Shown here one piece after another: positions 23,837-55,701 of a stretch of DNA of 64,000 bases (positions are counted from its first letter, which is position 1; each line of letters begins with the position of its first letter). Made by a program: the position numbers and the translations under genes. Under the pieces are notes generated by a model, which was given only the letters and a program-made list of their open reading frames with translations, had not been told where the DNA came from and searched no databases. Source of the DNA: Botryllus schlosseri (lineage: Eukaryota); contig CM119371.1 in the NCBI GenBank assembly GCA_051294905.1, positions 248,001 through 312,000 of the forward strand, given 5' to 3'.

Positions 23837-23904
23837 GTTCATAGGCCAAATTATAACCATCCGACAGTGGTGTTGAGGTTACACTGTAAGTAGTATAATA
23901 GATC

Positions 23905-24490
23905 GGTCGTGGTGTGCCATTGTGGCTTATGGGTGCGGCGGCACGGTGCCGAGAAACTCGTGGTGGCACGGTGACCCTTATCTCTTATGGGTGCGGTGGC
24001 ACGGTGCCATTGTGTCTTATGGCTGTGGTGGCACGGTTACCTTTTCGGGTATAGGCTGCGGCGGCACGGTGCCGTGAAAACTCGTGGTGGCATGGTTACC
24101 TTTTCGGGTATAGGCGCGGTGACATGGTGACCTTTCAGGTAGAGATGATTTGACTAACGTTGTGGGTATAGGCGGCGGCGGCACGGTGTCAGGTAGAGAT
24201 GATTTGACTAACGTTGTGGGTATAGGCGGCGGCGGCACGGTGTTGAAAATGCATCAGGTATGGTAAATAGTGACGTGAATGGTTCTTAGTTAATGTGTAT
24301 ATTACAAATTATTAAATATGACCGATTCGAGTTAATCCCAACGTTTACGGTGAGTACGACAATGATATATCGTTATTCTTATGGCGGGGGTGGCATGCGG
24401 CTATTTGTGTCTTGTGGTCGCACGGTAACCCTTTCAGGTAGAGATGATTTGACTAACGTTGTGGGTATAGGCGCGGCGGCCCGGTGTTGA
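23905..24490. repeat. Subterminal GC-rich GG(C/T)GGCACGGT motif array incl. 54-bp tandem duplication
   Basis: About a dozen ggcggcacggtg/ggtggcacggt motifs and an exact 54-bp tandem unit starting at 24136 and 24190. Mirrored at ~38240-38830. Confidence 0.85.
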
Positions 24491-27269
24491 ATATGTACCA
24501 GATGAATAGTCATGTGAATGTACCTTTGTTAATGTGTATATCGTAAATTATTATATATGATGTAGTTTAGTCGTGACAAATGACCGATCGCGTTCTAAGT
24601 CTTTCCTCACTATTGATCACTAGCTGAATAGTACTTTCAGATCGGGTTATTCGCGCCTTGTATCCCGCTGTTTCGCACCTACAGAATAGTCGTTATTCTT
24701 ATGGGCGCGGCGATGATTCGTACTTTCGTTTATAGACTGCAGGCGGCATGTCGTACTTTCACCAAAAAGGGTGTGAAATAGTTTGCTAAATCTAGGAATC
24801 AGTCGCATAGTAATGTTTGGACAATTAGATTACCACAGTACCGGCGTAGACGGCGATACGAATATCAACAATAGCCGCGTTCACAAACTAACACTTCAAA
24901 TAGGTGTGAAATAGGTTGCAAACCCCGCGATTGCTGACAAGATAATGTCTCGGACATACGCGACTTGATGTTACAGGCATGCCGATCGCTCACGAGGTAT
25001 TATTTTGGTAATTAGTTTGTCGCAGATCTAGATTTCACTGGTAAGATTTAATATGTAACGAATAACAGAACCGTCGCAGACGGTGATTCTGATACCGACA
25101 AATTCTCACTTATTTCTGATCCAACCCTAATCCTCTGTGAAGTTGACGCTTATTCAAAAAGGTGTGAAATAATTGTAAAAATCCTACGTCGCTGACACGA
25201 TAATGCATCAGACATAGCGATCTAGTTATAGTACGGTGTCGGAATCCATTCGCGAGATGTTCTATAGGTAAATTGAGATAATCCAAAACCGAATATTTTG
25301 ACTTTGGCGTAGTGTGAATTGAAATAGGATTGACAAACATGACTACCAACTTTCCCACAGTCCCGTTTCGATATTATACGTACATTGATTTGAAACAAGT
25401 AATGAAACATTGCAACTCTATTCGCGATCCCGCTTTCCGTTTGTCAAAGAGATATTTTAACATCTTACCATACTCAAAAGAATTATTCACAACATTAACA
25501 ATTGTTAAAAATCTAGTTTTCACTTACTTGATTATATCACTGCAACTCGCAAACTTGAATTAATTCATCCTGAATGTACTCATATGACCGATAATTTTTA
25601 TTCGACTGTAAAAGTCGTTACTAATCTATAACACAAAGTAATTACTACTCGGTACATATACGACTTGACATAACCTATTAGATTTTGAGTATACGAGATT
25701 TGAATGTCTGAACAATAACTGAGAATTAAATAATCGCAAGTGAATCCGTATATTACAGCGTAAAAGATATTGGAATGTCAGCAACTCTGTACGGTCATAG
25801 TTACTACCACATTACCTAATTTACCCGGCCAACTCGTCATGATCATCCCTGAAATCAACACAAACATGACCACTGACTTGAGTTAACCACAAAACAGCAT
25901 CAAGTTTTAAATCCACTTGTAGCTTACGGATTATTTGAATGCTGGTTATGTTTTGTTGTAATTGAGTGTACAGAAATAATATTACATCTCGACATCTTAC
26001 CATCTTACGATATTCAAAGAGTCAACCTCAAAAACATTGTCAAGTAAATCCGTTACCCGACCAAATCAAACAGTATCAGTATGAAAAACAGCCAAGCATA
26101 CACGAGTCCATACAATCACTAAAACCTAAAATCCATAACAAGTTCGGTTTTACTCATATCCCTACGACGCATCTTTTTTTATTCAACTTTAAAAGTCGTT
26201 ACTATTCTGTAAGATAGAGGAATTACTACGTGGTATATTCTGCAAGACAAAGTAATTATTACTCGATATATTTTGTAAGACAAAAGTAATTACTACTCGG
26301 TGTAGGTGACTTGAGAATAACATAATATGTTTGAGTATACGAGATTTGAAAGTCTGATCAACGTAGTTGCGACTTCATTTCTTACAATCGAACGCTGGTG
26401 TTATATTCAAAGTTATCATGCTGTAAACATAAGGATTGACACATTGATTTGACATATGAGATTTTGTAATAGTTGATCATGACTTAATTAATAAATTATT
26501 TGCGTTAATTAGACCCGGCGTTGTGGTAAATGTTATGACAGCAACAAACTTTTCAGTACCATTGTTATTAACATATTGAGTTGTAAACTATGTGTGTCTA
26601 AAATGTTCTCGATTGGAAAATTATTCAACCTTGGTACAAATCACTCTGGGTATTACGGATATCAGAAAATATTTTACAAATGTAATTGTTTCCAGTACTC
26701 AAGACTAAAGATGAAACAACAATTTCGTTTGCTGATTAACAACCGGTGCAATACTGTATTGTCGGGATCTGCGGTGAGAATTGAAACATACGCACATTAC
26801 GCAGTACGAAAATATCACTTCGGCTCCGGGAGGAGTAATTTAATCCGTGTTAAACTCTGTTCACGCTCTCTGTCGAAAATGTGCGAAATTTAAAAACATT
26901 ACGAGGTCACACTCTAAGACTTTGATCATCAAAAAGTAAATAGAGGTATCTTTACTGGACGGATTCTATTCAACCGGTCTTGATTAATACAAAACCCCCC
27001 ATAACAATAATATCGACGTATGTGCTACACTGAAATCTACAAAAATGTGTTTGTATTGCTGTTCATAGTAGCGATATCGATTTGAACCTCCAGAATAATT
27101 GTCATCATGTAACCAAACTAAGGAAAGTTGTTGTCAATTTGTATGATGTTCACTGAATGCGTACTAGAACTAATTGTGTAACGCACACGATCAGAGAAAT
27201 TGGAAATTTTCCCATTGTCATTCGTCACAATACTCGGCCACTAAAATACGTTACTTGGATGTGATTGAA

Positions 27270-27508
27270 TCGCTGGTAGTTAACTCGATTAATCAAACCC
27301 CTAAGAAATTTCACTCACTCATTGGATATTAAACAGTGTCGCCTAATCGGTGTGGGTCGCTTTTTCTAAATACAAATCATACCTGACCATCGCTGATAAT
27401 TAACTCGGTAAATCAAAACCCTAAGAAATTTCACTCACTCGTTGGATATTAAACAGTGTCGCTTAATCGGTGTAGATCGTTTTTCTAAATGCAAATCATA
27501 CCTGATCA
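27270..27508. repeat. 120-bp tandem duplication inside the Polinton-like arm
   Basis: ctaagaaatttcactcactc..ttggatattaaacagtgtcgc starts at both 27301 and 27421. Mirrored at ~34275-34505. Confidence 0.85.
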
Positions 27509-29339
27509 ACAGAAAACAATTTTCACTCACCTTGTAATGAAGCCAAGTGGTGGACCTTCGTTCAATATTTTGTTTGTGTCAAATACTTTGCAATAAACAC
27601 ACTGGAGTGGTCGAGCTTTACATCAGCAGACTGTAATCTGTAAATCAAGCTTACATCCGACTTGTAACTGTATCGTTTACCTAACCGAGTTGTATGCAGA
27701 GTTTGATATTTTTTGTTATTTGGTAATTGCTGAATATACTACTTCGAAATACCCCCTTGAACGTAATTTCCATCATCGTAATAATCGAAGTACATTTGTG
27801 TCGAATTCGTAACAACCGACTATGACATGATAAATTTTTTACAAGTTATGCTTGGAAGGTTGGTTGTATATCACGAAAAATAATTACCGCTCATTTTGAT
27901 ACTGTTATCCATTGTTCGGTATTTTCAAACGAGTAAAATTTATTACTTGAGTTACTCCGCTTAATGCAAATGTAAACACAACCGCCTTTCAACATCACAA
28001 AGACATCGATACAAAGTATACAAGCAAACGCAACAAGTTTTACTTTTGTAGGTTGTGTATGATTATCCTGCATAACTCATTTCTTACCAAAGTCATATGA
28101 AATATATTCATGTTACACGAAAATATTCCCATGCTACAAACCTATACAAGGATTGGTGGCGCTTTCAAAATGTTTCGATACCACAAGAACTTTATTGTCT
28201 GAATAATCAAATAGTTCAACACAGAACTAGTACTAACAGAAACATCAGAGTTGTTTACACAAAACTTTGTATGTGTACAGTATGCGAATACCATGTGTAA
28301 GTCCAGCACAATTTTGGTATCCATCCGGGTTTAGTTAACACAATTTACGACACCGAGGTCACCTCATCTTTCGTAAGACAACAAACCAACCAAGGTTTCA
28401 GGATATGTCCATGTCATAGCAATAAATCAGCTACTCCAACAACAGAGTACATATGTTTTCTAGTTACGGTGCTTACATCTTACACACAAATCAATCTACT
28501 TTGCTAACAAAAAGTGCTGGGTCATCAAGTGATTGCCCTAACAACAAAACAGCTAAACGTACTATCATACAAAATGGCCGTTATAGTCACAAGGTACATG
28601 ATACAAGTAACAAGTCTCGAGAATCCAGTTATTGAAAAAACATGAAAGTGTTTCTCCTGCGCCAAGTCGTTATGTTGACGAAAGCGTATATTGTAATATC
28701 ATGATCGATTTGCATTCGTTGGTCACAAAATGTCACTACTCTAAATAATTATTTTTCACTCAAACACAAACACATACTTGTCACCAATCGTTTTCATCAA
28801 GCACGAGTTCAAGAAACCTGCTACGACATGAATTCCGATTTAGTTTTACAAATATTTTATAATTGTTTTTTATTAACACTATATCAATGTCATCAAGTTG
28901 AGTGTTTACGATATTAGTGTGTAGGTGTGTGTGTCATACTTGGAGGATCCGTATTACAATTGACTCGAATTGACTAAATGTAAGAAGGGTTGAAATGTTT
29001 CGAATCGATTCATAAGTGGTCTTCGTTGTGGTTTTCGTCGGACATACAGCACGAACTAACTGTAGACTCCTCTCTGTTGTGCAGCTACTCGGTAATCGAA
29101 ATGCATTAACATGTAAACAACCATCTTGTTTCGTTACACCAAACATATGTTCACTGTCGCGATACTCTGCACAAGACGTGCAAATCCTTTTCACACTCGT
29201 AATAGTATACCAACGTCAAGCGATAACGTTTAACAAGACCAATGACACTGAACCCACGACGTTTACCTATGTAAAATTACCACTTTCACTTGTCAGTCCA
29301 TCGTTTACCTGACTAAACATATTATTTTCCTTTGGAGAT

Positions 29340-29850
29340 CTGACGTTTACCCAGAGTAAGAAACCATTTTCACTTGTAAATATATTTTTTCCTTGGCTAA
29401 CAAACCTTTTTTCACTTGGAAATATATTTTTTCTCTGGGTAACAAACCTTTTTCACTTGGAAATATATTTTTTCTCTGGTTAACAAACCTTTTTCACTTG
29501 GAAATATATTTTTTCTCTGGTTAACAAACCTTTTTCACTTGGAAATATTTTTTTTTTCTCCGGTTAACAAACCTTTTTCACTTGGAAATATATTTTTTCT
29601 CTGGGCAACAAACCTTTTTCCCCGGGTAACAAACCATTTTTCGCTGAGCAACAAGCCATTTTCACTTGGTGGTCCGTCGTTTACCTGAGTAAAAATATCA
29701 TTTTCCTTTGGAGATCTGGCGTTTACCCAGTGTAACAATGCATTTTCACTTGGAAAAATACTTTTACCTAGAGTAACTAATCATTTTCTCCTGGGTAACA
29801 ATCCCTTTTCACTTGGAAATACATTTTTTCCCTGGGTAACAATACCATTT
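29340..29850. repeat. ~40-43-bp minisatellite inside the Polinton-like arm
   Basis: Tandem units aacaaacctttttcacttggaaatatattttttctctgg(g/t)t. Mirrored at ~32255-32765. Confidence 0.9.
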
Positions 29851-31528
29851 TGAAATCTGACAAACACACCGGCCAATTTGATATTTTTGTATATTGTTCC
29901 AACGAACAGTGACGGAAATATACACAGACTACCGGTTTCAGAGTATACCCATCGGTCGTATCACATCAATATCATCGGTTAACCACATACAATATGCTCT
30001 TGTACACCGAAATGCACGCTTTGGAAAATTGGACAATAGGCTTCGATAGTTCTGTGATGTCCGGGTTCGTGCTTTGGATTTTCCAGAGTCAAAATGTCTG
30101 AATAAAACACCTTCTCGACGATGGTCGGTATGTGGATAACGGTGTTCGGAAAACGGTTGGGTTTATGTCACCCATCGCGATAACAACTCCAGGTCGAGTT
30201 TTCTCCCACATGTTTACTATATTGTGTCTTTATTGGTCAATGTATGTCTCGACATTCAGTTTGAAATCGGAAACCCTGATAAAGTATGTAACCGGATCCG
30301 GATATCAACTGTGAATCGATAAACCAATGGACAATATTCAAAGTAAACATGTTACACCCTGTGTTTCCACTAAAAAATACCATCCAGACATACGTCGCGC
30401 TTGTTTGCCCACATCAGTATACGCGCAAATGGAGGTGTGTGACATGGCATGCAATGTGTTGGTATACAAACATCGGGGAGTAAGCCTTCGATCCACAGAC
30501 ATTATCATAGCCGGTAGTTTTGATGTAGATCGAATGTCACCTGATAAAAATGTCATACCAATAAGCCACATTGCAGGGTCAAATGACTGTCGCGCTATTA
30601 CATCGATATTTCGGTACCGTTCACTGATTTACTCGATGGTGTTATCGTGTTGTAACATTGCAAGATAGTCATGACCCTATCTCCGGACAGACCACCCAGA
30701 GCAGTTGGATGCATCGGTCAATATCCGTCGTGTTGTCGACACCGAAGTTCTCTGCTGTACAGCGTTTGACCAATGTGAACTATCGAAGTATGGGTGCTCG
30801 AAATGATTGTGATCAGTCTTTCAGTCACGATGAATGGATGTCGCTACTCCCACATAACGACTCCAGATAAATATCGTGAACCGCGATTCTGTAAATCTCG
30901 GACTGATACTGTGATCCAGTAAGGTGTGTTTCTGTGGAATGAAGACTGCAATCGTACACCGCAATAGAACACTACCTCGTGATTTCACACACAATCATAA
31001 AACACATCGTCGTAAGGGTCCAGTTCGTCCGGTGACATTTCGAAACGGGCATCACCACAAGAGATCGGTAACATTTTGAAACGGCATCGTCACAAGGCTA
31101 TTGACGTCGATTCTGTTGGTCATGTCAATCCGTTTCACAATCCGCCGTTTCTCAAGTCCCTGCACCATAGTGTTACGACACAGACAAGATGCGATGGTGG
31201 AAATAATAAAGTACGGAAGGCACACTTTGGTGTTATTTGACATGGATTTTACACCCGACGAACCTTACATTCGAGCGATGCATTGGAATGGCGCTTGCAT
31301 TATTGACGTAGAAGGAACAGAAATGTATCGATTTGTCGGTTTCGTACATATCCAACAAAAATCTGGGTATATGAGTGTGCACGGTTCGCATATTCGACTG
31401 TGAACGCTCTATTGGTATATGTTGTACTCTATTTGTATATGTTCACTTTCACCGTCGTGCGAATAACCCATGTTACGGTTCCATGTTTGTGTGTCGGTAT
31501 GTCATACTTCAGATTGACTCAGAGTCAT

Positions 31529-34500
31529 TGCAATGTGGCTTATTGGTATGACATTTTTATCAGGTGACATTCGATCTACATCAAAACTACCGGCTATGAT
31601 AATGTCTGTGGATCGAAGGCTTACTCCCCGATGTTTGTATACCAACACATTGCATGCCATGTCACACACCTCCATTTGCGCGTATACTGATGTGGGCAAA
31701 CAAGCGCGACGTATGTCTGGATGGTATTTTTTAGTGGAAACACAGGGTGTAACATGTTTACTTTGAATATTGTCCATTGGTTTATCGATTCACAGTTGAT
31801 ATCCGGATCCGGTTACATACTTTATCAGGGTTTCCGATTTCAAACTGAATGTCGAGACATACATTGACCAATAAAGGCACAATATAGTAAACATGTGGGA
31901 GAAAACTCGACCTGGAGTTGTTATCGCGATGGGTGACATAAACCCAACCGTTTTCCGAACACCGTTATCCACATACCGACCATCGTCGAGGAGGTGTTTT
32001 ATTCAGACATTTTGACTCTGGAAAATCCAAAGCACGAACCCGGACATCACAGAACTATCGAAGCCTATTGTCCAATTTTCCAAAGCGTGCATTTCGGTGT
32101 ACAAGAGCATATTGTATGTGGTTAACCGATGATATTGATGTGATACGACCGATGGGTATACTCTGAAACCGGTAGTCTGTGTATATTTCCGTCACTGTTC
32201 GTTGGAACAATATACAAAAATATCAAATTGGCCGGTGTGTTTGTCAGATTTCAAAATGGTATTGTTACCCAGGGAAAAAATGTATTTCCAGGTGAAAAGG
32301 GATTGTTACCCAGGAGAAAATGATTAGTTACTCTAGGTAAAAGTATTTTTCCAAGTGAAAATGCATTGTTACACTGGGTAAACGCCAGATCTCCAAAGGA
32401 AAATGATATTTTTACTCAGGTAAACGACGGACCACCAAGTGAAAATGGCTTGTTGCTCAGCGAAAAAGGTTTGTTACCCGGGGAAAAAGGTTTGTTGCCC
32501 AGAGAAAAAATATATTTCCAAGTGAAAAAGGTTTGTTAACCGGAGAAAAAAAATATATTTCCAAGTGAAAAAGGTTTGTTAACCAGAGAAAAAATATATT
32601 TCCAAGTGAAAAAGGTTTGTTAACCAGAGAAAAAATATATTTCCAAGTGAAAAAGGTTTGTTACCCAGAGAAAAAATATATTTCCAAGTGAAAAAAGGTT
32701 TGTTAGCCAAGGAAAAAATATATTTACAAGTGAAAATGGTTTCTTACTCTGGGTAAACGTCAGATCTCCAAAGGAAAATAATATGTTTAGTCAGGTAAAC
32801 GATGGACTGACAAGTGAAAGTGGTAATTTTACATAGGTAAACGTCGTGGGTTCAGTGTCATTGGTCTTGTTAAACGTTATCGCTTGACGTTGGTATACTA
32901 TTACGAGTGTGAAAAGGATTTGCACGTCTTGTGCAGAGTATCGCGACAGTGAACATATGTTTGGTGTAACGAAACAAGATGGTTGTTTACATGTTAATGC
33001 ATTTCGATTACCGAGTAGCTGCACAACAGAGAGGAGTCTACAGTTAGTTCGTGCTGTATGTCCGACGAAAACCACAACGAAGACCACTTATGAATCGATT
33101 CGAAACATTTCAACCCTTCTTACATTTAGTCAATTCGAGTAAATTGTAATACGGATCCTCCAAGTATGACACACACACCTACACACTAATATCGTAAACA
33201 CTCAACTTGATGACATTGATATAGTGTTAATAAAAAACAATTATAAAATATTTGTAAAACTAAATCGGAATTCATGTCGTAGCAGGTTTCTTGAACTCGT
33301 GCTTGATGAAAACGATTGGTGACAAGTATGTGTTTGTGTTTGAGTGAAAAATAATTATTTAGAGTAGTGACATTTTGTGACCAACGAATGCAAATCGATC
33401 ATGATATTACAATATACGCTTTCGTCAACATAACGACTTTGCGCAGGAGAAACACTTTCATCTTTTTTCAATAACTGGATTCTCGAGACTTGTTACTTGT
33501 ATCATGTACCTGGTGACTATAACGGCCATTTTGTATGATAGTACGTTTAGCTGTTTTATTGTTAGGGCAATCACTTGATGACCCAGCACTTTTTGTTAGC
33601 AAAGTAGATTGATTTGTGTGTAAGATGTAAGCACCGTAACTAGAAAACATATGTACTCTGTTGTTGGAGTAGCTGATTTATTGCTATGACATGGACATAT
33701 CCTGAAACCTTGGTTGGTTTGTTGTCTTACGAAAGATGAGGTGACCTCGGTGTCGTAAATTGTGTTAACTAAACCCGGATGGATACCACAATTGCGCTGG
33801 ACTTACACATGGTATTCGCATACTGTACACATACAAAGTTTTGTGTAAACAACTCTGATGTTTCTGTTAGTACTAGTTCTGTGTTGAACTATTTGATTAT
33901 TAAGATACATGAACACCCATTCAGACAATAAAGTTCTTGTGGTATCGAAACATTTTGAAAGCGCCACCAATCCTTGTATAGGTTTGTAGCATGGGAATAT
34001 TTTCGTGTAACATGAATATATTTCATATGACTTTGGTAAGAAATGAGTTATGCAGGATAATCATACACAACCTACAAAAGTAAAACTTGTTGCGTTTGCT
34101 TGTATACTTTGTATCGATGTCTTTGTGATGTTGAAAGGCGGTTGTGTTTACATTTGCATTAAGCGGAGTAACTCAAGTAATAAATTTTACTCGTTTGAAA
34201 ATACCGAACAATGGATAACAGTATCAATATGAGCGGTAATTATTTTTCGTGATATACAACCAACCTTCCAAGCATGATTTGCATTTAGAAAAACGATCTA
34301 CACCGATTAAGCGACACTGTTTAATATCCAACGAGTGAGTGAAATTTCTTAGGGTTTTGATTTACCGAGTTAATTATCAGCGATGGTCAGGTATGATTTG
34401 TATTTAGAAAAAGCGACCCACACCGATTAGGCGACACTGTTTAATATCCAATGAGTGAGTGAAATTTCTTAGGGGTTTGATTAATCGAGTTAACTACCAG

Positions 34501-37500
34501 CGATTCAATCACATCCAAGTAACGTATTTTAGTGGCCGAGTATTGTGACGAATGACAATGGGAAAATTTCCAATTTCTCTGATCGTGTGCGTTACACAAT
34601 TAGTTCTAGTACGCATTCAGTGAACATCATACAAATTGACAACAACTTTCCTTAGTTTGGTTACATGATGACGATTATTCTGGAGGTTCAAATCGATATC
34701 GCTACTATGAACAGCAATACAAACACATTTTTGTAGATTTCAGTGTAGCACATACTTCGATATTATTGTTATGGGTTTTGTATTAATCAAGACCGGTTGA
34801 ATAGAATCCGTCCAGTAAAGATACCTCTATTTACTTTTTGATGATCAAAGTCTTAGAGTGTGACCTCGTAATGTTTTTAAATTTCGCACATTTTCGACAG
34901 AGAGCGTGAACAGAGTTTAACACGGATTAAATTACTCCTCCCGGAGCCGAAGTGATATTTTCGTACTTTGTAATGTGCGTATGTTTCAATTCTCACCGCA
35001 GATCCCGACAATACAGTATTGCACCGGTTGTTAATCAGCAAACGAAATTGTTGTTTCATCTTTAGTCTTGAGTACTGGAAACAATTACATTTGTAAAATA
35101 TTTTCTGATATCCGTAATACCCAGAGTGATTTGTACCAAGGTTGAATAATTTTCCGATCGAGAACATTTTAGACACACATAGTTTACAACTCAATATGTT
35201 AATAACAATGGTACTGAAAAGTTTGTTGCTGTCATAACATTTACCACAACGCCGGGTCTAATTAACGCAAATAATTTATTAATTAAGTCATGATCAACTA
35301 TTACAAAATCTCATATGTCAAATCAATGTGTCAATCCTTATGTTTACAGCATGATAACTTTGAATATAACACCAGCGTTCGATTGTAAGAAATGAAGTCG
35401 CAACTACGTTGATCAGACTTTCAAATCTCGTATACTCAAACATAATATGTTATTCTCAAGTCACCTACACCGAGTAGTAATTACTTTTGTCTTACAAAAT
35501 ATATCGAGTAATAATTACTTTGTCTTGCAGAATATACCACGTAGTAATTCCTCTATCTTACAGAATAGTAACGACTTTTAAAGTTGAATAAAAAAAGATG
35601 CGTCGTAGGGATATGAGTAAAACCGAACTTGTTATGGATTTTAGGTTTTAGTGATTGTATGGACTCGTGTATGCTTGGCTGTTTTTCATACTGATACTGT
35701 TTGATTTGGTCGGGTAACGGATTTACTTGACAATGTTTTTGTGGTTGACTCTTTGAATATCGTAAGATGGTAAGATGTCGAGATGTAATATTATTTCTGT
35801 ACACTCAATTACAACAAAACATAACCAGCATTCAAATAATCCGTAAGCTACAAGTGGATTTAAAACTTGATGCTGTTTTGTGGTTAACTCAAGTCAGTGG
35901 TCATGTTTGTGTTGATTTCAGGGATGATCATGACGAGTTGGCCGGGTAAATTAGGTAATGTGGTAGTAACTATGACCGTACAGAGTTGCTGACATTCCAA
36001 TATCTTTTACGCTGTAATATACGGATTCACTTGCGATTATTTAATTCTCAGTTATTGTTCAGACATTCAAATCTCGTATACTCAAAATCTAATAGGTTAT
36101 GTCAAGTCGTATATGTACCGAGTAGTAATTACTTTGTGTTATAGATTAGTAACGACTTTTACAGTCGAATAAAAATTATCGGTCATATGAGTACATTCAG
36201 GATGAATTAATTCAAGTTTGCGAGTTGCAGTGATATAATCAAGTAAGTGAAAACTAGATTTTTAACAATTGTTAATGTTGTGAATAATTCTTTTGAGTAT
36301 GGTAAGATGTTAAAATATCTCTTTGACAAACGGAAAGCGGGATCGCGAATAGAGTTGCAATGTTTCATTACTTGTTTCAAATCAATGTACGTATAATATC
36401 GAAACGGGACTGTGGGAAAGTTGGTAGTCATGTTTGTCAATCCTATTTCAATTCACACTACGCCAAAGTCAAAATATTCGGTTTTGGATTATCTCAATTT
36501 ACCTATAGAACATCTCGCGAATGGATTCCGACACCGTACTATAACTAGATCGCTATGTCTGATGCATTATCGTGTCAGCGACGTAGGATTTTTACAATTA
36601 TTTCACACCTTTTTGAATAAGCGTCAATTTCACAGAGGATTAGGGTTGGATCAGAAATAGGGGAGATGTGGTACCGATGGATCACTGGGACCGAAAATAC
36701 TTGAAAAATTCACCATGATGATTCCATGATTACACTCCGTGAATTTGTCTACAATTACATGCTTTTGGAATCTTTCCTCACATGCAAAAAAATTCGACCT
36801 GCGTCAGTTATGCGGTCCGTGACGAATGATTTACGTTTTAGGGGGTGTAAAGTAAATTTGGATCGACATTTGCATTTTTCTATATCACCTTTCAGACTGA
36901 CAAACCCGCCATGATTTTTGATGTGAAGTATAAGGCTTGTATCAAGGTATGTAACGGCACATATTTTTTTAATCAATACCATCATCGAGTGGACTATTTC
37001 TAGTCAATTACAATATTTATGGGGTGGGGGACCTATGGTACCATCGCCAAATCAAGCAAAATAGATGGACCAACTAATCACTTAACAACAGAAACTCGCC
37101 TACATATATATAGGCTGTAAATCAAAGTTACCTGTGGTGTTTCATCGCTATCACGAGGTAGTTGAAAGTCAAAATGTCGATTTGCGGGTAATATATATGT
37201 GGCATTAATTTTGTAAATTTAGGCGTAAATCAAAACATGATTTGATGCCAACATTTGAGTTGATATAATCTATTTTATTCTTGAAGATCGTAACGAAACA
37301 TTCTTCATTGGCTTGCTGTAGCTTAGCTTATAGTACACAACAAAACAATTGACAAATTTGAGTTTTTGAGCGTATGAATCATAGGTTCCATGGCCGTGTG
37401 CCATAGGACCCACCGGGTGGGGACCGATGACACGTTCGAGCAACAAATTTTAAACGTTTATAAATATTTTTTGAAAAGGCGGATATTCATGTAAATGTCT

Positions 37501-38843
37501 GCGATAGGTAGAGCTTGTATCGAAGTGTTGAGACAGCAAAAGATATGCTATTCTCGGCTGAAGATTTGAGGGCCAGAGACCATTTTGCAATTTTTGATCC
37601 ATCGGTACCACATCTCCCCTAAGTGAGAATTTGTCGGTATTAGAATCACCGTCTGCGACGGTTCTGTTATTCGTTACATATTAAATCTTACCAGTGAAAT
37701 CTAGATCTGCGACAAACTAATTACCAAAATAATACCTCGTGAGCGATCGGCATGCCTGTAACATCAAGTCGCGTATGTCCGAGACATTATCTTGTCAGCA
37801 ATCGCGGGGTTTGCAACCTATTTCACACCTATTTGAAGTGTTAGTTTGTGAACGCGGCTATTGTTGATATTCGTATCGCCGTCTACGCCGGTACTGTGGT
37901 AATCTAATTGTCCAAACATTACTATGCGACTGATTCCTAGATTTAGCAAACTATTTCACACCCTTTTTGGTGAAAGTACGACATGCCGCCTGCAGTCTAT
38001 AAACGAAAGTACGAATCATCGCCGCGCCCATAAGAATAACGACTATTCTGTAGGTGCGAAACAGCGGGATACAAGGCGCGAATAACCCGATCTGAAAGTA
38101 CTATTCAGCTAGTGATCAATAGTGAGGAAAGACTTAGAACGCGATCGGTCATTTGTCACGACTAAACTACATCATATATAATAATTTACGATATACACAT
38201 TAACAAAGGTACATTCACATGACTATTCATCTGGTACATATTCAACACCGGGCCGCCGCACCTATACCCACAACGTTAGTCAAATCATCTCTACCTGAAA
38301 GGGTTAACGTGCGACCACAAGACACAAATAGCCGCATGCCACCCCCGCCATAAGAATAACGATATATCATTGTCGTACTCACCGTAAACGTTGGGATTAA
38401 CTCGAATCGGTCATATTTAATAATTTGTAATATACACATTAACTAAGAACCATTCACGTCACTATTTACCATACCTGATGCATTTTCAACACCGTGCCGC
38501 CGCCGCCTATACCCACAACGTTAGTCAAATCATCTCTACCTGACACCGTGCCGCCGCCGCCTATACCCACAACGTTAGTCAAATCATCTCTACCTGAAAG
38601 GTCACCATGTCACCGCGCCTATACCCGAAAAGGTAACCATGCCACCACGAGTTTTCACGGCACCGTGCCGCCGCAGCCTATACCCGAAAAGTTAACCGTG
38701 CCACCACAGCCATAAGACACAATGGCACCGTGCCACCGCACCCATAAGAGATAAGGGTCACCGTGCCACCACGAGTTTCTCGGCACCGTGCCGCCGCACC
38801 CATAAGCCACAATGGCACACCACGACCGATCTATTATACTACT
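31529..38843 (-). repeat. Right arm of giant inverted repeat (7,315 bp incl. 960-bp MITE)
   Basis: Reverse complement of the left arm except for a 960-bp insertion (36660-37619), loss of 350 bp corresponding to 27500-27849, an extra 20 bp at ~33901-33920, and scattered substitutions. Confidence 0.95.
36660..37619. mobile_element. Non-autonomous DNA transposon with TA TSD (Tc1/mariner/pogo-type MITE)
   Basis: Perfect 25-bp TIR GGGGAGATGTGGTACCGATGGATCA with TA duplicated on both sides. The empty site is preserved in the left arm at ~25110. Confidence 0.92.
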
Positions 38844-39978
38844 ACTGTAGACACCATATCAGCAACAAGTCAATGCAATTGACAATAGTGTTACCATATG
38901 ACCTCTTTTTTCAAAGTATTCTCAGAGCAAGCACAAATGTCCTCTTCTTTGTGAATTTATCCTCTGTTTTGAAAATTTTGGTTGAATGTATGTGAAAATT
39001 AAACTGAGAAATTGGAAATAAGTACTGAAGTAACGCTCCGGCAGGTGTTTCGAGAGTTGACCCAGAATGGTGACCTTTTTTTTACTCAACCAACTACAAA
39101 ATTGGAACAAATTTGACAATTTTTTAAAATTTAACTTCTGCATTGCAAGTCTGAATTTTATTTAAATGGTATCCTCTTTTCAGATCCCAAAACATGGTAA
39201 CCCTAATCGACACTAAATTCTGAGAAGGCGAAAAAGTGCTCGATGAGTACACAGTTACATGCAAAAACGGACCACAAAGTAGTTATATGTAGAAGTGGAT
39301 AATATAATTATTACACCAAAATATAATTCAAATATCTGTGGTTGCACTCCTTTTGCGCTTATGAGTCAACATCTCCTTGGCTTCCAGAGAAACCCGAATC
39401 AAGATGTAAAAATGATGAAGCAAATTTCAACGTCCACGTTTACGGTTAAATCGCTTGTATTTCTCACAACGCTTACACAGGAATGTCGGATTCCGACTAA
39501 AACAAAGCAAGCATGGCATTTCGCCAACGTATATCGTCGGTCGGCCAGTCATCGTAATTTAGCCAATTCGGTTGTTTGCGAATAATAAAGGTATTGATTG
39601 ATTGGAACCAGATGGCCGTGATATAACGTGATTATTATAATGAGTATAAGCTTTATAATTAGGTATTCAAGTGAAAAACAAGGGCATGGATTTTAAGGAA
39701 AAATTTTGGAATCATTTGACTGGTCCGGCCCGCGAGTGCTCTGAAAGTTTGACCATGACCCGCAACGTCAGTTGAGTTTGACACCCCTGCTTTAGATGAA
39801 TATATTACCAGGAATCAGGAACTCCGCAACTGCGGTGGATATCTCGGGCATGGAATAGAACTTAATTCACGTGGATGGGACACGTACTGTACGGGCAGAA
39901 CTAAATGATAAACGCGCGATGGTTTGAGGAGAACGTTCAATATATCCAATGCAACTGAAACTGGATGATAAGTACTAC

Positions 39979-41641: not shown

Positions 41642-42115
41642 CGTTAGTGATGGGGTGAATCAAATTCGAAATGTAAGAACTATTTTGTCTGTATGACGTA
41701 ATAATAACAAAAACAAACAACTAGTAGACGGGCTAGATACGGTAGTAACGGTACAAAACAAACGTTAACGAGTACATATTCGGTTACAAATAACCGAAAA
41801 CACAACACATAACATTAATGAAATATTCCAAGAGTGTAGAGGCGTTCCTTCTGGCGACAGAGAATCGGCTTTCGTAGCTTTATGATCGTAGATTCCAGGA
41901 CCTTTAAATGAAAAAGAGAACGGCCACGAGCGAGTATAGAAAATTTACTGTCATTGTAATGATCAGCACATTCTGGATGGGATAAGAGATGCTGTCCAAT
42001 AGCCGAATTACAAGCAGTAACTTGATCATAATCACGCAGTGTGTCAACAGACTGCGATGAAGGAGTTATCCCATCCAGAATGTGCTGATCATTACAATGA
42101 CAGTCCGAAATCTCT

Positions 42116-43396
42116 ATGTGTTTGTTTGATATATCTAGTTTATTCACGAACGTGCCAGTTCAAGAGACTATAGAGATTTGTGCCAATGAACTCTATGGTG
42201 GTGTCCTTCCATCTCCTCCATTCTCAAGGTCTTCTTTTGTTAAATTAATGCGATTGATCACTTGTGATGTCGAATTTAGTTTCAATAACACCATATATAC
42301 ACAGATCGATGGTGTTGCAATGGGATCGCCGCATGGTCCCATTCTGGCTAAGATTTTTGTGGGGTATCACGAAAAACGGTTATTCGAAGATATTGATCGA
42401 CCATTAATGTATCAAAGATATGCTGATGACACCTTCGCCATATTTGAAAATGAATCCCAGTGTGATTTGTTTCTGAGCAAATTGAATGGTCTTCACCCAT
42501 CACTGAAATTCACCATGGAAAAAGAGGTTAATAATTCATTAGCATTCCTTGATGTTGTAGTGGAAAAGACGGGTGCTAATTTTGTTACATCAGTTTACCG
42601 TAAGCCTACATTCAGTGGGCAATACATTTCGTGGGATTCTTTCTGTCCAGTAAAACGTAAAGTAAATTTGATAAGAACTCTGGTACACAGGGCTCTGATG
42701 ATTTGTAGTAAAGTCAAACTTGATTCTGAATTGGAGAACATTCGGTCAATCTTTCAGTCAAATGGTTATCCCGATCATATCATTAAAATGACCATAGATC
42801 GTAAACTCAAAGATTTCAGAAAAGTTAAACCGTTTGGACCTAGAAAATGTCCTGTTTATTTGCATCTTCCTTGGATTGGGAAAGTGTCCAACAGGTTTGA
42901 AAAACAAATTAAATCGTCAGTGAGCCATTGTTTTTCACAAGTAGAACCACAGATAATCTTCATGACGAAATCTCTGATGCCTGCAACGCAAAAGGATGTC
43001 CTACCTGCGACAAATCAAAGCAACATAATATATGAATACACGTGCCGATGTGACAGTCGGTATGTAGGTCGCACGTCTCAGCGCTTGCAGCAAAGAATTC
43101 GCCAGCATGTCCCACGGCAAATTAGAATAAATAATGTTTCTCCAACTCCTTCATCGCAGTCTGTTGACACACTGCGTGATTATGATCAAGTTACTGCTTG
43201 TAATTCGGCTATTGGACAGCATCTCTTATCCCATCCAGAATGTGCTGATCATTACAATGACAGTCAATTTTCTATACTCGCTCGTGGCCGTTCTCTTTTT
43301 CATTCAAAGGTCCTGGAATCTACGATCATAAAGCTACGAAAGCCGATTCTCTGTCGCCAGAAGGAACGCCTCTACACTCTTGGAATATTTCATTAA
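42116..43396 (+). CDS. Penelope-like reverse transcriptase + GIY-YIG endonuclease (N-terminally truncated)
   Basis: RT motifs FDISSLFTNVP, YTQIDGVAMGSP, RYADDTF, LAFLDV, VYRKPT. GIY-YIG NIIYEYTCRCDSRYVGRTSQRLQQRIRQH with CCHH residues. Confidence 0.93.
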   Translation: MCLFDISSLFTNVPVQETIEICANELYGGVLPSPPFSRSSFVKLMRLITCDVEFSFNNTIYTQIDGVAMGSPHGPILAKIFVGYHEKRLFEDIDRPLMYQRYADDTFAIFENESQCDLFLSKLNGLHPSLKFTMEKEVNNSLAFLDVVVEKTGANFVTSVYRKPTFSGQYISWDSFCPVKRKVNLIRTLVHRALMICSKVKLDSELENIRSIFQSNGYPDHIIKMTIDRKLKDFRKVKPFGPRKCPVYLHLPWIGKVSNRFEKQIKSSVSHCFSQVEPQIIFMTKSLMPATQKDVLPATNQSNIIYEYTCRCDSRYVGRTSQRLQQRIRQHVPRQIRINNVSPTPSSQSVDTLRDYDQVTACNSAIGQHLLSHPECADHYNDSQFSILARGRSLFHSKVLESTIIKLRKPILCRQKERLYTLGIFH

Positions 43397-53927: not shown

Positions 53928-54258
53928 AACGATCACAGTGAGTAAACTCAAGATGTGATCTAACCGTTAGGCTTATCAGTGCTATCTCGGGGAAAGAATT
54001 ACCGTATGTAGCATACTGCCAAAAAAATAGGAAGATCTGAGATATTCATGAAAAGTGTCAGTTTAAATATCACAGTAATATTATTTTGTTTTTCGGGTTT
54101 CGCAATTTAAAAAAGACGAATACGGTTTCACTGCATTCTATCTGCCTTGAAATTGAATCGATGTTATTGGTTAACGTATTCAGGAGATAAATATGATCCT
54201 TCTGCAGTGAATCAAGCGAATGCGAACACGATAAACTATATTTTCCGACGAGACTCAC

Positions 54259-55701
54259 CTTCATGAAGATTATCCGGCGTTTCGTCGTATATGATGCCGC
54301 ACACGAATCTGCGGACGACCGACCATCGCTCTTTGTGCAAGTGTTTAGAGTTGAAGCTGATGAACTTTGTATACGTCATTTCGACTACAAAGCCCGCGGC
54401 GAGGAATTCCTGGAGACTTTGATGGCAGAAAAAGAAAATGAAACTGCCATCCAACAGATTGCAACTGAGGAGGTTATTTCCTGGAACCTTCATCATAAGA
54501 TCTTGAACTTCATCTTTTGAAAGTCTAAACCTCTTCAAATCATTTTCAGAGAATGTCACTCTCCCTTCTTTCATGCCAAGATATGCCATTGCTTTCAATT
54601 TATTGATAATCCCGGCAATAGCATCAGCCTTTCTAATGTTTTTCACGCTACTTAAAGTGGATACAATTATTTTGTAGAGTCCTGTGACCGTCTTGGGAGG
54701 AGGCTCGTTCGGATTCTTGGCCATGATCACAGCGGTTAAGACCAGAAAAACGGGAATGGAAACTAAATTGATCAGCCTTGGTGACATCGTTTCTATCCTC
54801 GCCCATGCTTCATCCCCATGCTGATGTATCAGAAACACAAAAAGCTTCTTTGCGTCATCTAGATTCAAACCAGAAAGTGTGATGATGTCGGTGGGTCGAG
54901 CTTCCGCGGGCAAATCCGAGACTTGGAATTCTCGGGAAGAGATGACGATTTTTGTATCAGCGAGCAGATTACGTGAGAGGATGTTGTACATGATCGTTGC
55001 TGCTTTGGCTTTACTATAAGGATTTATGTTCTCGTCGCCATCTCTGTTGATTTTCCAAGTAGCCTGATCCAAACCGTCGAAATATAAAACTGCTTCTGAT
55101 TGATGTTCGATCAACCACTGATACGCATTATCCTCGTCGATCTTATTCTGAAAGAGGCCTCCGAAGAGAAATTTAGATGGTTTCATGGATCTTTTATCTC
55201 GCATGCCTTTTATTTCTATATAATGTATCAATTTATACTTGAGCTGAGAGGGGCTTGCAGTGGCTCCTGTATTCGTGAGTGAATGCCCTAAAGTTTTTCT
55301 AGCGATTCTGCGCATGAGAGTGGTTTTCCCAGATCCTGCAGACGCAACTATAGCGGTGATAGAACTTTCCCCGATGATAACTTGTTGTAAAACTTCATCT
55401 AGCTTGAGGAATTTGTTGTCGTCAACTTTTTGTCGGAGGAATCCGAACTCCTTTCTGAATTGATTTTTAACCACCTCTTCCTTTCGCCAGAAGAAGAATT
55501 TTCTTTTTACTGCCACTTCCATTTCGTGCACCTCTTCATAATTGCCTTTGAAATATTCCGACTTAGTGACTCTTCTCATCTAGGGATGTACTTGGAAATC
55601 AGGTTTGTTGAGGTCGTCGGCGCCGATGTCTTCGAGGATTCTGTCCGCCGTCTTTTGCGACGCATTATCGTTTATGCACTTTATCAGGGCTGAAGCTTTT
55701 T
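54259..55701 (-). CDS. NLR gene, NACHT NTPase exon (ORF 54236-55579; in-frame TAG at 55580-55582)
   Basis: Walker A ASAGSGKTT, Walker B VLYFDGLDQ, sensor-1 IVISSR, helical-domain IPVFL and winged-helix FCHQSLQEFLAA. Acceptor ttccag at 55702, donor gtgagt at 54258. Confidence 0.92.

Follow-up and report, generated by a model that had tools for sequence, protein, structure and literature searches.

The Mavericks, or Polintons, of vertebrates end in 5'-(AGT)2//(ACT)2-3' or (AG)3//(CT)3, are flanked by perfect target-site duplications (TSDs) of 6 bp, carry terminal inverted repeats (TIRs) of 46–1,447 bp, measure 12.7–24.6 kb and occur at an average of 22 copies per genome (PMC8097293; this and the other papers are cited for excerpts of their text). 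A strict definition holds that 'All Polintons, by definition' encode pPolB and an integrase (PMC5499653), a screen for coral polintoviruses relied on hallmark genes and on TIR limits of 100–2,500 bp (PMC11131425), and an apparent absence of non-autonomous Polintons was reported for the anole (PMC3014272). Full-text literature searches, together with the excerpts of these papers and of PMC6431247, revealed no palindromic, high-copy, one-gene non-autonomous Maverick, Repbase lying outside the search. Here, we describe an element of this kind at positions 23889–38843 of a window of 64,000 nucleotides from Botryllus schlosseri (assembly GCA_051294905.1, contig CM119371.1, positions 248,001–312,000, forward strand; window positions are counted from its first letter). 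The element resembles Mavericks in its (AGT)2...(ACT)2 ends, perfect 6-bp TSD, TIRs and length, in one small gene that it has in common with them and in an end sequence common to the coding Mavericks of the same genome. It differs from them in being palindromic and devoid of pPolB, integrase, ATPase, protease and capsid genes, in having TIRs of 6.7 kb rather than 46–1,447 bp, and in belonging to a family of some 1,000 copies, against the vertebrate average of 22 (PMC8097293).

We consider it probable (about 0.8) that this sequence is a single insertion belonging to a high-copy, helper-dependent, non-autonomous family derived from Mavericks/Polintons and composed of ~14-kb palindromes with a centre of ~0.95 kb and a single gene of 93 amino acids (aa). 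The element is 14,955 bp long and forms a near-complete palindrome, in which six collinear inverted-repeat blocks pair 23889–30575 with 31529–38843 at 99–100% complementarity; a BLAST comparison of the element with itself aligned the arms in stretches of 1,224 nt (99.67% identity), 2,396 nt (99.46%) and 2,748 nt (98.80%). An inverted repeat of 6.7 kb cannot be attributed to chance. The left terminus reads AGTAGTATAATAG... and the right terminus ...CTATTATACTACT, and direct reading confirmed the AGTAGT...ACTACT ends and the perfect ACTGTA duplication described in an earlier note on this DNA (Table 1). That note also gave two inverted arms of ~6.7 kb around a 953-bp spacer and no open reading frame (ORF) longer than ~115 aa. 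The blocks and the spacer stand, but the arms are unequal (left, 6,687 bp; right, 7,315 bp including a secondary insertion), and the frames, all short, reach 126 aa from stop to stop (the longest of 24 that measure 70 aa or more in the left arm plus centre). Without the 960-bp secondary insertion and its duplication, the element measures 13,993 bp. A Pfam scan of 50 frames of at least 55 aa gave no match at the cut-off, and no tRNA or Rfam match was found anywhere in the window. As no frame exceeds 126 aa and no Pfam, polymerase, integrase or ATPase match was obtained, the element is a non-autonomous derivative and not a Polinton in the strict sense.

We searched the 495.5-Mb assembly (contigs labelled C1, C2 and so on) with a 20-nt end motif, AGTAGTNNNNNNGATCGGTC, allowing up to one mismatch, and with the reversed motif as a control. 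The motif was found 1,310 times in forward and 1,268 times in reverse orientation (2,578 in total), versus 41 and 61 times (102) for the control. The 100 motif places listed, all on C1 and without mismatches, formed 41 adjacent plus/minus pairs with a median span of 13,955 bp, 24 of them between 12 and 16 kb and seven shorter (3.3–11 kb). A search with the centre yielded 1,049 first-look candidates, with 39 scored non-self matches at 90–92% over nearly the full length, and a search with an inner-arm piece yielded 2,576 candidates. We estimate from these motif counts and first-look candidates, which are not a full annotation, that the family has about 1,000 or more copies and occupies ~3% of the assembly. 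The condition that this might be the only palindromic copy, which the earlier note had given as a ground for rejecting mobility in this form, is contradicted by a family of this size.

All ten other copies sampled, on nine contigs, were palindromic, with arms of 2.0–6.9 kb that were 99.19–99.96% identical. Two copies of 8.6 kb, C10 and C1b, have short arms; they follow the full palindrome in order except where internal segments are deleted, and are evidently deletion derivatives of it. The centres of C32 and C1c aligned over their full length (86–90% identity). Perfect 6-bp TSDs, all different, flanked each of the 12 elements scored (the window copy, eight others, C7, the C3 array and a 42-kb element on C6; the tenth copy was not scored). 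Counting two coding elements as well, the centre of the target was CG in seven of 14 TSDs (p = 9e-6) and YR in 12 (p = 3e-6). Palindromic copies with different TSDs had been proposed as the mark of transposition in this form, and such transposition is supported by the sequences of the copies at hand. A contig from run X6, obtained from another sample with the same organism label, joins position 23888 to the right flank through a single ACTGTA, and thus represents the empty site that had been sought in other individuals; it is moderate evidence for an insertion polymorphism, the shorter side being only 23 nt long. The alternative of a local inverted duplication, or of an assembly artefact, at this one locus could draw on the fact that no single record spans the stretch in the sequencing runs aligned to it, the Logan contigs there being ~85–150 nt long. 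However, such an origin is very unlikely given that the ten further copies share the architecture, and it has also to contend with 12 different TSDs, the excess of end motifs over the control and the empty-site contig, so that we give it practically no weight.

Two loci of the family are more complex. At C3:30392033–30431403, a single left end precedes three right ends, spaced at 12.9 kb, that all have the same flank and TSD (GTCCAC); the arrangement would reflect either tandem duplication with a palindromic copy involved or an error of assembly. The 42-kb element at C6:2230749–2272799 has family ends and the TSD ATCCTG, and presumably contains nested insertions. In addition, C17:995028–996528 is a single 99% match to the inner-arm piece 25400–26900 with no partner arm listed, and may be a fragment or a close sibling of the window copy. 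We abandoned the proposition that every copy lacks close siblings because of this partial match and of the groups of copies with identical ORF scores described below.

Coding Mavericks are present in the same genome. POL1 (Table 1) encodes BIR (E 2e-18), Bcl-2 (1e-20), Pox_A32 ATPase (8e-9), rve (2e-13) and Chromo (4e-9) domains, and POL2, on C3 and partly read, encodes an integrase with rve (E 2e-16) and Chromo domains, a P-loop ATPase and an open frame of 1,212 aa. This frame gave no significant Pfam match with hmmscan and no PDB sequence match; among the clusters of a protein atlas, it resembles eukaryotic ones of PF03175, the protein-primed polymerase B (pPolB) family (20 of 30 hits; score 0.96, with 224 of 256 features). 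A genome search with this frame gave 370 candidates, and 35 of the 38 long scored matches were stop-free, with open frames of 1,089–1,300 aa. A genome search with the PF03175 profile returned no match at E ≤ 0.001 and nine weak rows at E up to 10, among which repeated frames of 774–1,212 aa pointed to POL2. The best of these rows, on C5, was rejected as a Maverick pPolB, since it corresponds to a DNA polymerase delta. A genome search for Peptidase_C5 (PF00770) found no candidates, with controls that were equally silent. As separate observations, the genes of POL1 include apoptosis regulators of the BIR (IAP-like) type and of the Bcl-2 family next to the ATPase and integrase, and C5:11747079–11750306 (minus strand) is an intronless gene or retrocopy for a full, 1,075-aa catalytic subunit of DNA polymerase delta (Pfam E 4e-157; PDB 6s1m).

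A 26-mer internal to POL2 occurred 95 times in the genome (control, 0), never as inverted pairs, and was located 3.1–4.6 kb inside five of the 41 pairs of end motifs on C1, three of which contained polymerase-like frames. One of these five, the coding element C1:34868426–34884932 (16.5 kb), has the end motif AGTAGTTATATAGATCGGTCG, the TSD CACGAA, a TIR that extends over at least 700 bp (99.43% identity) and an open pPolB-like frame of 1,213 aa. The first 300 bp of the window element are 91.6% identical to its TIR, and patchy similarity of the coding element's end to other palindromic copies reaches ~950 bp. Subterminal motifs of the GGCACGGTGCC type also occur in the end of this coding element, and these small palindromes may be a binding site. 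Inside ~390 bp, the coding family is 93–96% conserved and each element has this sequence once. The palindromic and coding families share ends, and therefore resemble a non-autonomous element and its helper. They stand at 36:5 among the 41 pairs on C1, where only the five were positively identified, by the Maverick marker. Coding copies measure 14.7–17.3 kb (POL1, 14.7; four C1 elements, 14.9–17.3), close to the palindromic median, as the earlier note had remarked of a native length of ~14 kb. The same note had named copies that continue into pPolB, integrase, ATPase or capsid genes as the way to identify the helper, and the five marker-positive pairs, the C1 element among them, are candidates for such copies. 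Its proposal of a helper acting in trans is plausible as far as the shared ends and the integrase, ATPase and pPolB-like frames of the coding Mavericks go.

The TSD alone would not decide the affiliation, since TSDs of 6 bp are not unique to Polintons in the Repbase classification. The element could thus belong to another superfamily with 6-bp TSDs or fold-back ends (IS3EU, Dada or Foldback-like), its likeness to Mavericks being coincidental, and it encodes neither pPolB nor integrase. However, 300 bp of its end are 91.6% identical to the TIR of an element with a pPolB-like frame, the 20-nt end motif is common to both, a coding Maverick contains a homologue of the centre gene, and (AGT)2 ends are a Maverick signature (PMC8097293). 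We therefore judge another superfamily to be highly improbable, and the Maverick affiliation proposed in the earlier note is upheld by the (AGT)2/(ACT)2 ends, the 6-bp TSDs and the TIR homology.

The element had also been described as gene-less, which proved incorrect, for its centre holds a conserved, ATG-initiated ORF of 93 aa on the plus strand (Table 1). A tblastn search with 54 POL1 and POL2 frames against ten palindromic copies yielded a single family of hits, between a 95-aa frame of POL1 and the centre; the polymerase, integrase and ATPase of the two coding elements gave no match. The window ORF is 50.6% identical to the POL1 frame over 87 aa (E 2e-26), and in POL1 the homologue is situated 2.4 kb inside one end, in outward orientation. 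In the genome, we found 1,177 candidates for this ORF, and all 150 scored matches spanned residues 1–92 or 1–93, with 84–100% aa identity. Among these best 150, 112 were stop-free and 38 had one in-frame TGA, many with identical scores. The sets with identical scores show recent bursts, and the TGA-bearing copies point to a young subfamily that would have multiplied with a broken or read-through gene. The ORF is the sole part of the centre that can still be aligned between the window lineage and the deeply diverged C7. Comparison with the C7 lineage gave proportions of nonsynonymous (pN) and synonymous (pS) differences of 0.20–0.23 and 0.54–0.57, respectively (Fisher p 8e-8 to 1e-5), and on these substitution patterns the gene is under purifying selection.

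Six relatives of the ORF, of 90–95 aa, were found in public collections, all unnamed and without Pfam domains. Three long repeat proteins (RTX, cadherin) from a search of representatives were judged to be noise, and one real relative was present there. A pattern scan of viral contigs found nothing, and a search of metagenome and viral contigs with the ORF alignment found no confirmed relative. An AlphaFold2 model built from 11 sequences has a predicted local distance difference test score (pLDDT) of 74.8 and a predicted template modelling score of 0.66, and is all-beta with nine strands; an earlier model from six sequences was poor (pLDDT 46.9). The best Foldseek match (E 0.019) and the best VIA-align match (Z 5.4 to 5zs3_A, root-mean-square deviation 4.6, 75 residues) were both below reliable levels, and small heat-shock/alpha-crystallin and CS-type beta-sandwiches headed the lists at such sub-reliable scores. 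A search with the POL1 version of the gene gave 1,195 candidates, many of the best 150 being minus-then-plus pairs 1.3–27 kb apart. No POL2-type polymerase was found near any of the best 150 matches of either ORF search. Inverted, outward-facing pairs of the gene lie 1.3–6 kb or 11–15 kb apart (e.g., C2:27215777/27217117 and C6:3174711/3185685), and because of such pairs there seem to be further palindromic or long-TIR families with the gene in both arms.

In all 12 elements, the closest relative of each arm in a sample of 36 ends was its own partner, at 98.25–100% identity over 1.2–2.0 kb, versus 85–96% for other ends. The three elements with nested insertions, i.e., the window copy (the 960-bp element), C1c (a Penelope-like element) and the 42-kb C6 element, had the three lowest arm identities (~99.2, 99.19 and 98.25%, respectively); the remaining nine were at 99.46% or above. 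Lineages separated by a pS of ~0.55 in the centre gene and by 12–28% in the arms have all retained the palindromic form with the same centre, which argues for a long concerted evolution of the arms. The sequences mark the family as old and diversified, and not as a recent accident of a defective genome. Between C7 and the window element, identity falls inward, the outer 3 kb being 86–89% alike, the inner arm 72–77% and the gene 71%, possibly through cis-acting constraint or through exchange of outer arms between lineages.

Similar arms could also be maintained in a non-autonomous Maverick derivative by gene conversion within the chromosome, as in the palindromes of sex chromosomes, with no hairpin stage. 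The contrast between arms of 98.25–100% identity in all 12 elements and copies that are 4–15% apart is what conversion would produce, as are the best other matches of the window element, at 90% for the end and 96% for the inner arm, apart from the one 99% partial match. However, the three lowest identities in the three elements with nested insertions fit decay after insertion, the 960-bp insertion and a 337-bp repeat difference persist between the arms of the window copy, perfect TSDs in all 12 elements argue that the copies are young and not old and homogenised, and the identical-score ORF sets indicate recent bursts. Since the copies with nested insertions have the lowest identities, and the insertion and the repeat difference have not been erased, the arms would have been identical at integration and have drifted later. 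The arm data fit such drift and suit continuous chromosomal conversion less well, and we regard conversion as an unlikely explanation, although the least unlikely of the alternatives.

For the favoured reading of a helper-dependent, Maverick-derived family, the following cycle can be envisaged. The integrase of the helper would insert the element with a 6-bp staggered cut, which would explain the preference for CG or YR at the target centre common to both families, and the helper's protein-primed polymerase would copy the element from its two identical ends; dependence of the palindromes on the helper's replication proteins is what our analysis would predict. A single strand, displaced in protein-primed replication or excised, may fold back as a 6.7-kb hairpin whose loop is the centre, and the symmetry would be renewed in each cycle, either by correction of mismatches or by completion of one arm on the template of the other. 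The arms would thus be identical when inserted and then diverge in the chromosome, akin to a pair of long terminal repeats (LTRs) of a retrotransposon. Kapitonov and Jurka are said to have proposed a 'racket' model for Polintons in 2006, and adenoviruses undergo panhandle repair; the hairpin suggested here would be an extreme form of either. The founder most likely had a single origin, by copy-back just beyond the small gene.

Several observations weigh against this reading or parts of it. Copy-back explains the architecture but not most of the arm sequence, since beyond ~1 kb the arms have no detectable Maverick ancestry. The ~5.7 kb of inner arm matched no DNA of the sampled POL1 and POL2 (the POL2-type helper being sampled except for ~2.7 kb located ~2–4.7 kb from the left end) and, at the protein level, none of their 54 frames, the sole hit being the centre ORF. 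The assignment of pPolB rests on a look-alike by language model and a sub-threshold Pfam match (E 0.39, genome search). The outermost 140–200 bp of coding copies are only 70–80% alike, and with end sequences that vary in this way any pairing of helper and subfamily is tentative; mobilisation of the palindromes by the helper, as the earlier note proposed, is something that we infer from sequence. The ORF is intact in only four of 11 copies (window, C1c, C2 and C7), whereas C32 has a broken version, C4 a truncated one and five copies none, and the gene is not needed in cis, since the TGA-bearing subfamily still multiplied. Close ORF pairs gave an omega of ~0.46–0.56, which was not significant (p 0.07–0.12).

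The earlier note had taken the element for a copy-back, or snap-back, defective genome. The family does have the corresponding build, one genome end being present twice, in opposite orientation, on the two sides of a turn-around (the 953-bp centre). However, its arms match the helper only in the outer 0.3–0.95 kb, its centre is conserved across lineages, with length variation explained by deletions, and it has diversified into subfamilies with a selected gene and integrates with TSDs. The snap-back genomes of adenoviruses and other linear viruses arise recurrently, have variable break points and form no lineages. The inverted-end build is thus retained from that proposal, but a defective genome as such does not agree with an old family with a conserved centre and inner arms without a helper match.

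Other systems offer partial parallels. Like non-autonomous transposons of the miniature inverted-repeat type, the family shares only its ends with its autonomous partner and outnumbers it (36:5 on C1). Typical non-autonomous DNA transposons shrink, whereas this family is unshrunk, with a mode of ~14 kb, is almost wholly palindromic and keeps a selected gene. The Foldback (FB) elements of Drosophila also have very long inverted ends with internal tandem repeats. However, FB arms consist of tandem repeats and FB TSDs are 9 bp long, while the arms of this family are mostly unique sequence and are associated with 6-bp TSDs and Maverick ends. Transpovirons and virophage-type parasites are of linear type, with long TIRs and few genes, and depend on another virus-like element. 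The family shares with them long TIRs, very few genes and a size compatible with the helper genome, but its helper would be an endogenous Maverick and not a giant virus, and it is known here from DNA sequence alone. No match to the family was found in viral or metagenome contig collections.

The ~14-kb mode is compatible with a length constraint on replication or packaging. We therefore entertain, as a tentative extension with rather less than even odds, that the family is a true Maverick satellite, with a linear genome replicated by protein priming, a near-helper length set by packaging in the helper's capsids, one gene directed at the helper or at the element's own ends, and arms remade in a hairpin in each cycle. 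A different role would be that of domesticated or tolerated host loci, whose long hairpins would yield double-stranded RNA and small RNAs that silence the Mavericks with the same ends. By architecture alone, perfect long inverted repeats with 0.3–0.95 kb in common with helper TIRs would suit this role. However, no RNA run was listed as containing the stretch, in RNA run X23, of which ~6% was covered, the 114 reads found all lay only partly on the stretch, the ~1,000 dispersed copies with TSDs and bursts look selfish, and the helper matches only a small part of the arm. We consider this role improbable.

The features of the element are listed in Table 1. The 960-bp transposon in the right arm duplicated TA (36658–59 and 37620–21), and the homologous site in the left arm is uninterrupted; it is not part of the palindromic family, and by its TSD it is Tc1/mariner-like. 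A 79%-identical copy of it adjoins POL1 on C1. Elsewhere in the window, a 431-aa frame (42101–43396, plus strand) has, by eye, a Penelope-type reverse transcriptase and a GIY-YIG-like tail, an insertion similar to that in C1c, and a 447-aa frame (54236–55579, minus strand) has a NACHT domain, its nearest atlas cluster being cnidarian.

Table 1. Positions of the palindromic element's parts and flanks in the window, and of the coding element POL1 on contig C1.
Feature	Position	Strand	Basis or description
Left TSD copy, ACTGTA	23883–23888		Direct reading
Left arm, 6,687 bp, begins with (AGT)2 end motif AGTAGTATAATAGATCGGTCG	23889–30575	+	Blocks I3, I1, I5, I6, I2, I4; arm-to-arm 98.8–99.7%
Outer arm part homologous to coding-Maverick TIR	23889–24728, mirror 38004–38843	+	First 300 bp 91.6%, patchy matches to ~24728
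Subterminal tandem repeats, units of 32, 54 and 65 bp, with repeated GGCACGGTGCC palindromes	23934–24243, mirror 38489–38772		Tandem Repeats Finder (TRF)
Additional copies of 120-bp tandem repeat, 337 bp, left arm only	27505–27841		Gap in arm-to-arm BLAST, offset 90% matches
41/42-bp tandem repeat arrays close to inner end of arm	29356–29754, mirror 32253–32747		TRF
Centre, 953 bp, unique, homologous family-wide	30576–31528		Gap between innermost arms
Centre ORF, 93 aa	31122–31403 (stop codon included)	+	Translation, conservation
Right arm, 7,315 bp, ends ...ACTACT	31529–38843	-	Inverted-repeat blocks, BLAST
120-bp repeat unit in right arm	34274–34504		TRF
Secondary insertion, 960-bp TA-duplicating non-autonomous transposon, 24-bp TIRs GGGGAGATGTGGTACCGATGGATC	36660–37619		Right arm only
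Right TSD copy, ACTGTA	38844–38849		Direct reading
POL1, 14.7 kb	C1:15400348–15415020		Ends AGTAGTAG, TSD CGTATC

The usual picture of Mavericks is that of low-copy elements whose TIRs measure a few hundred base pairs, and non-autonomous partners have rarely been reported. Here, a gene-poor derivative outnumbers its coding relatives ~7:1 on one chromosome and may fill ~3% of the genome, and it has still retained a length close to that of the helper, its mirror symmetry and a single gene under selection. Screens based on hallmark genes, such as that of the excerpted PMC11131425, would miss such a family. Arms that were apparently identical at insertion and then decayed would provide a built-in clock, comparable to LTR dating, and their decay offers a direct test of the mode of replication, through a single-strand hairpin or panhandle stage. 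The family is also a natural system for asking whether Mavericks make size-limited particles. Should the tentative satellite interpretation prove true, the family would allow the single-strand 'racket' intermediate, long proposed for Polinton transposition, to be read from a genome for the first time, and it would be a Maverick counterpart, in an animal genome, of hyperparasites of the virophage and transpoviron type.

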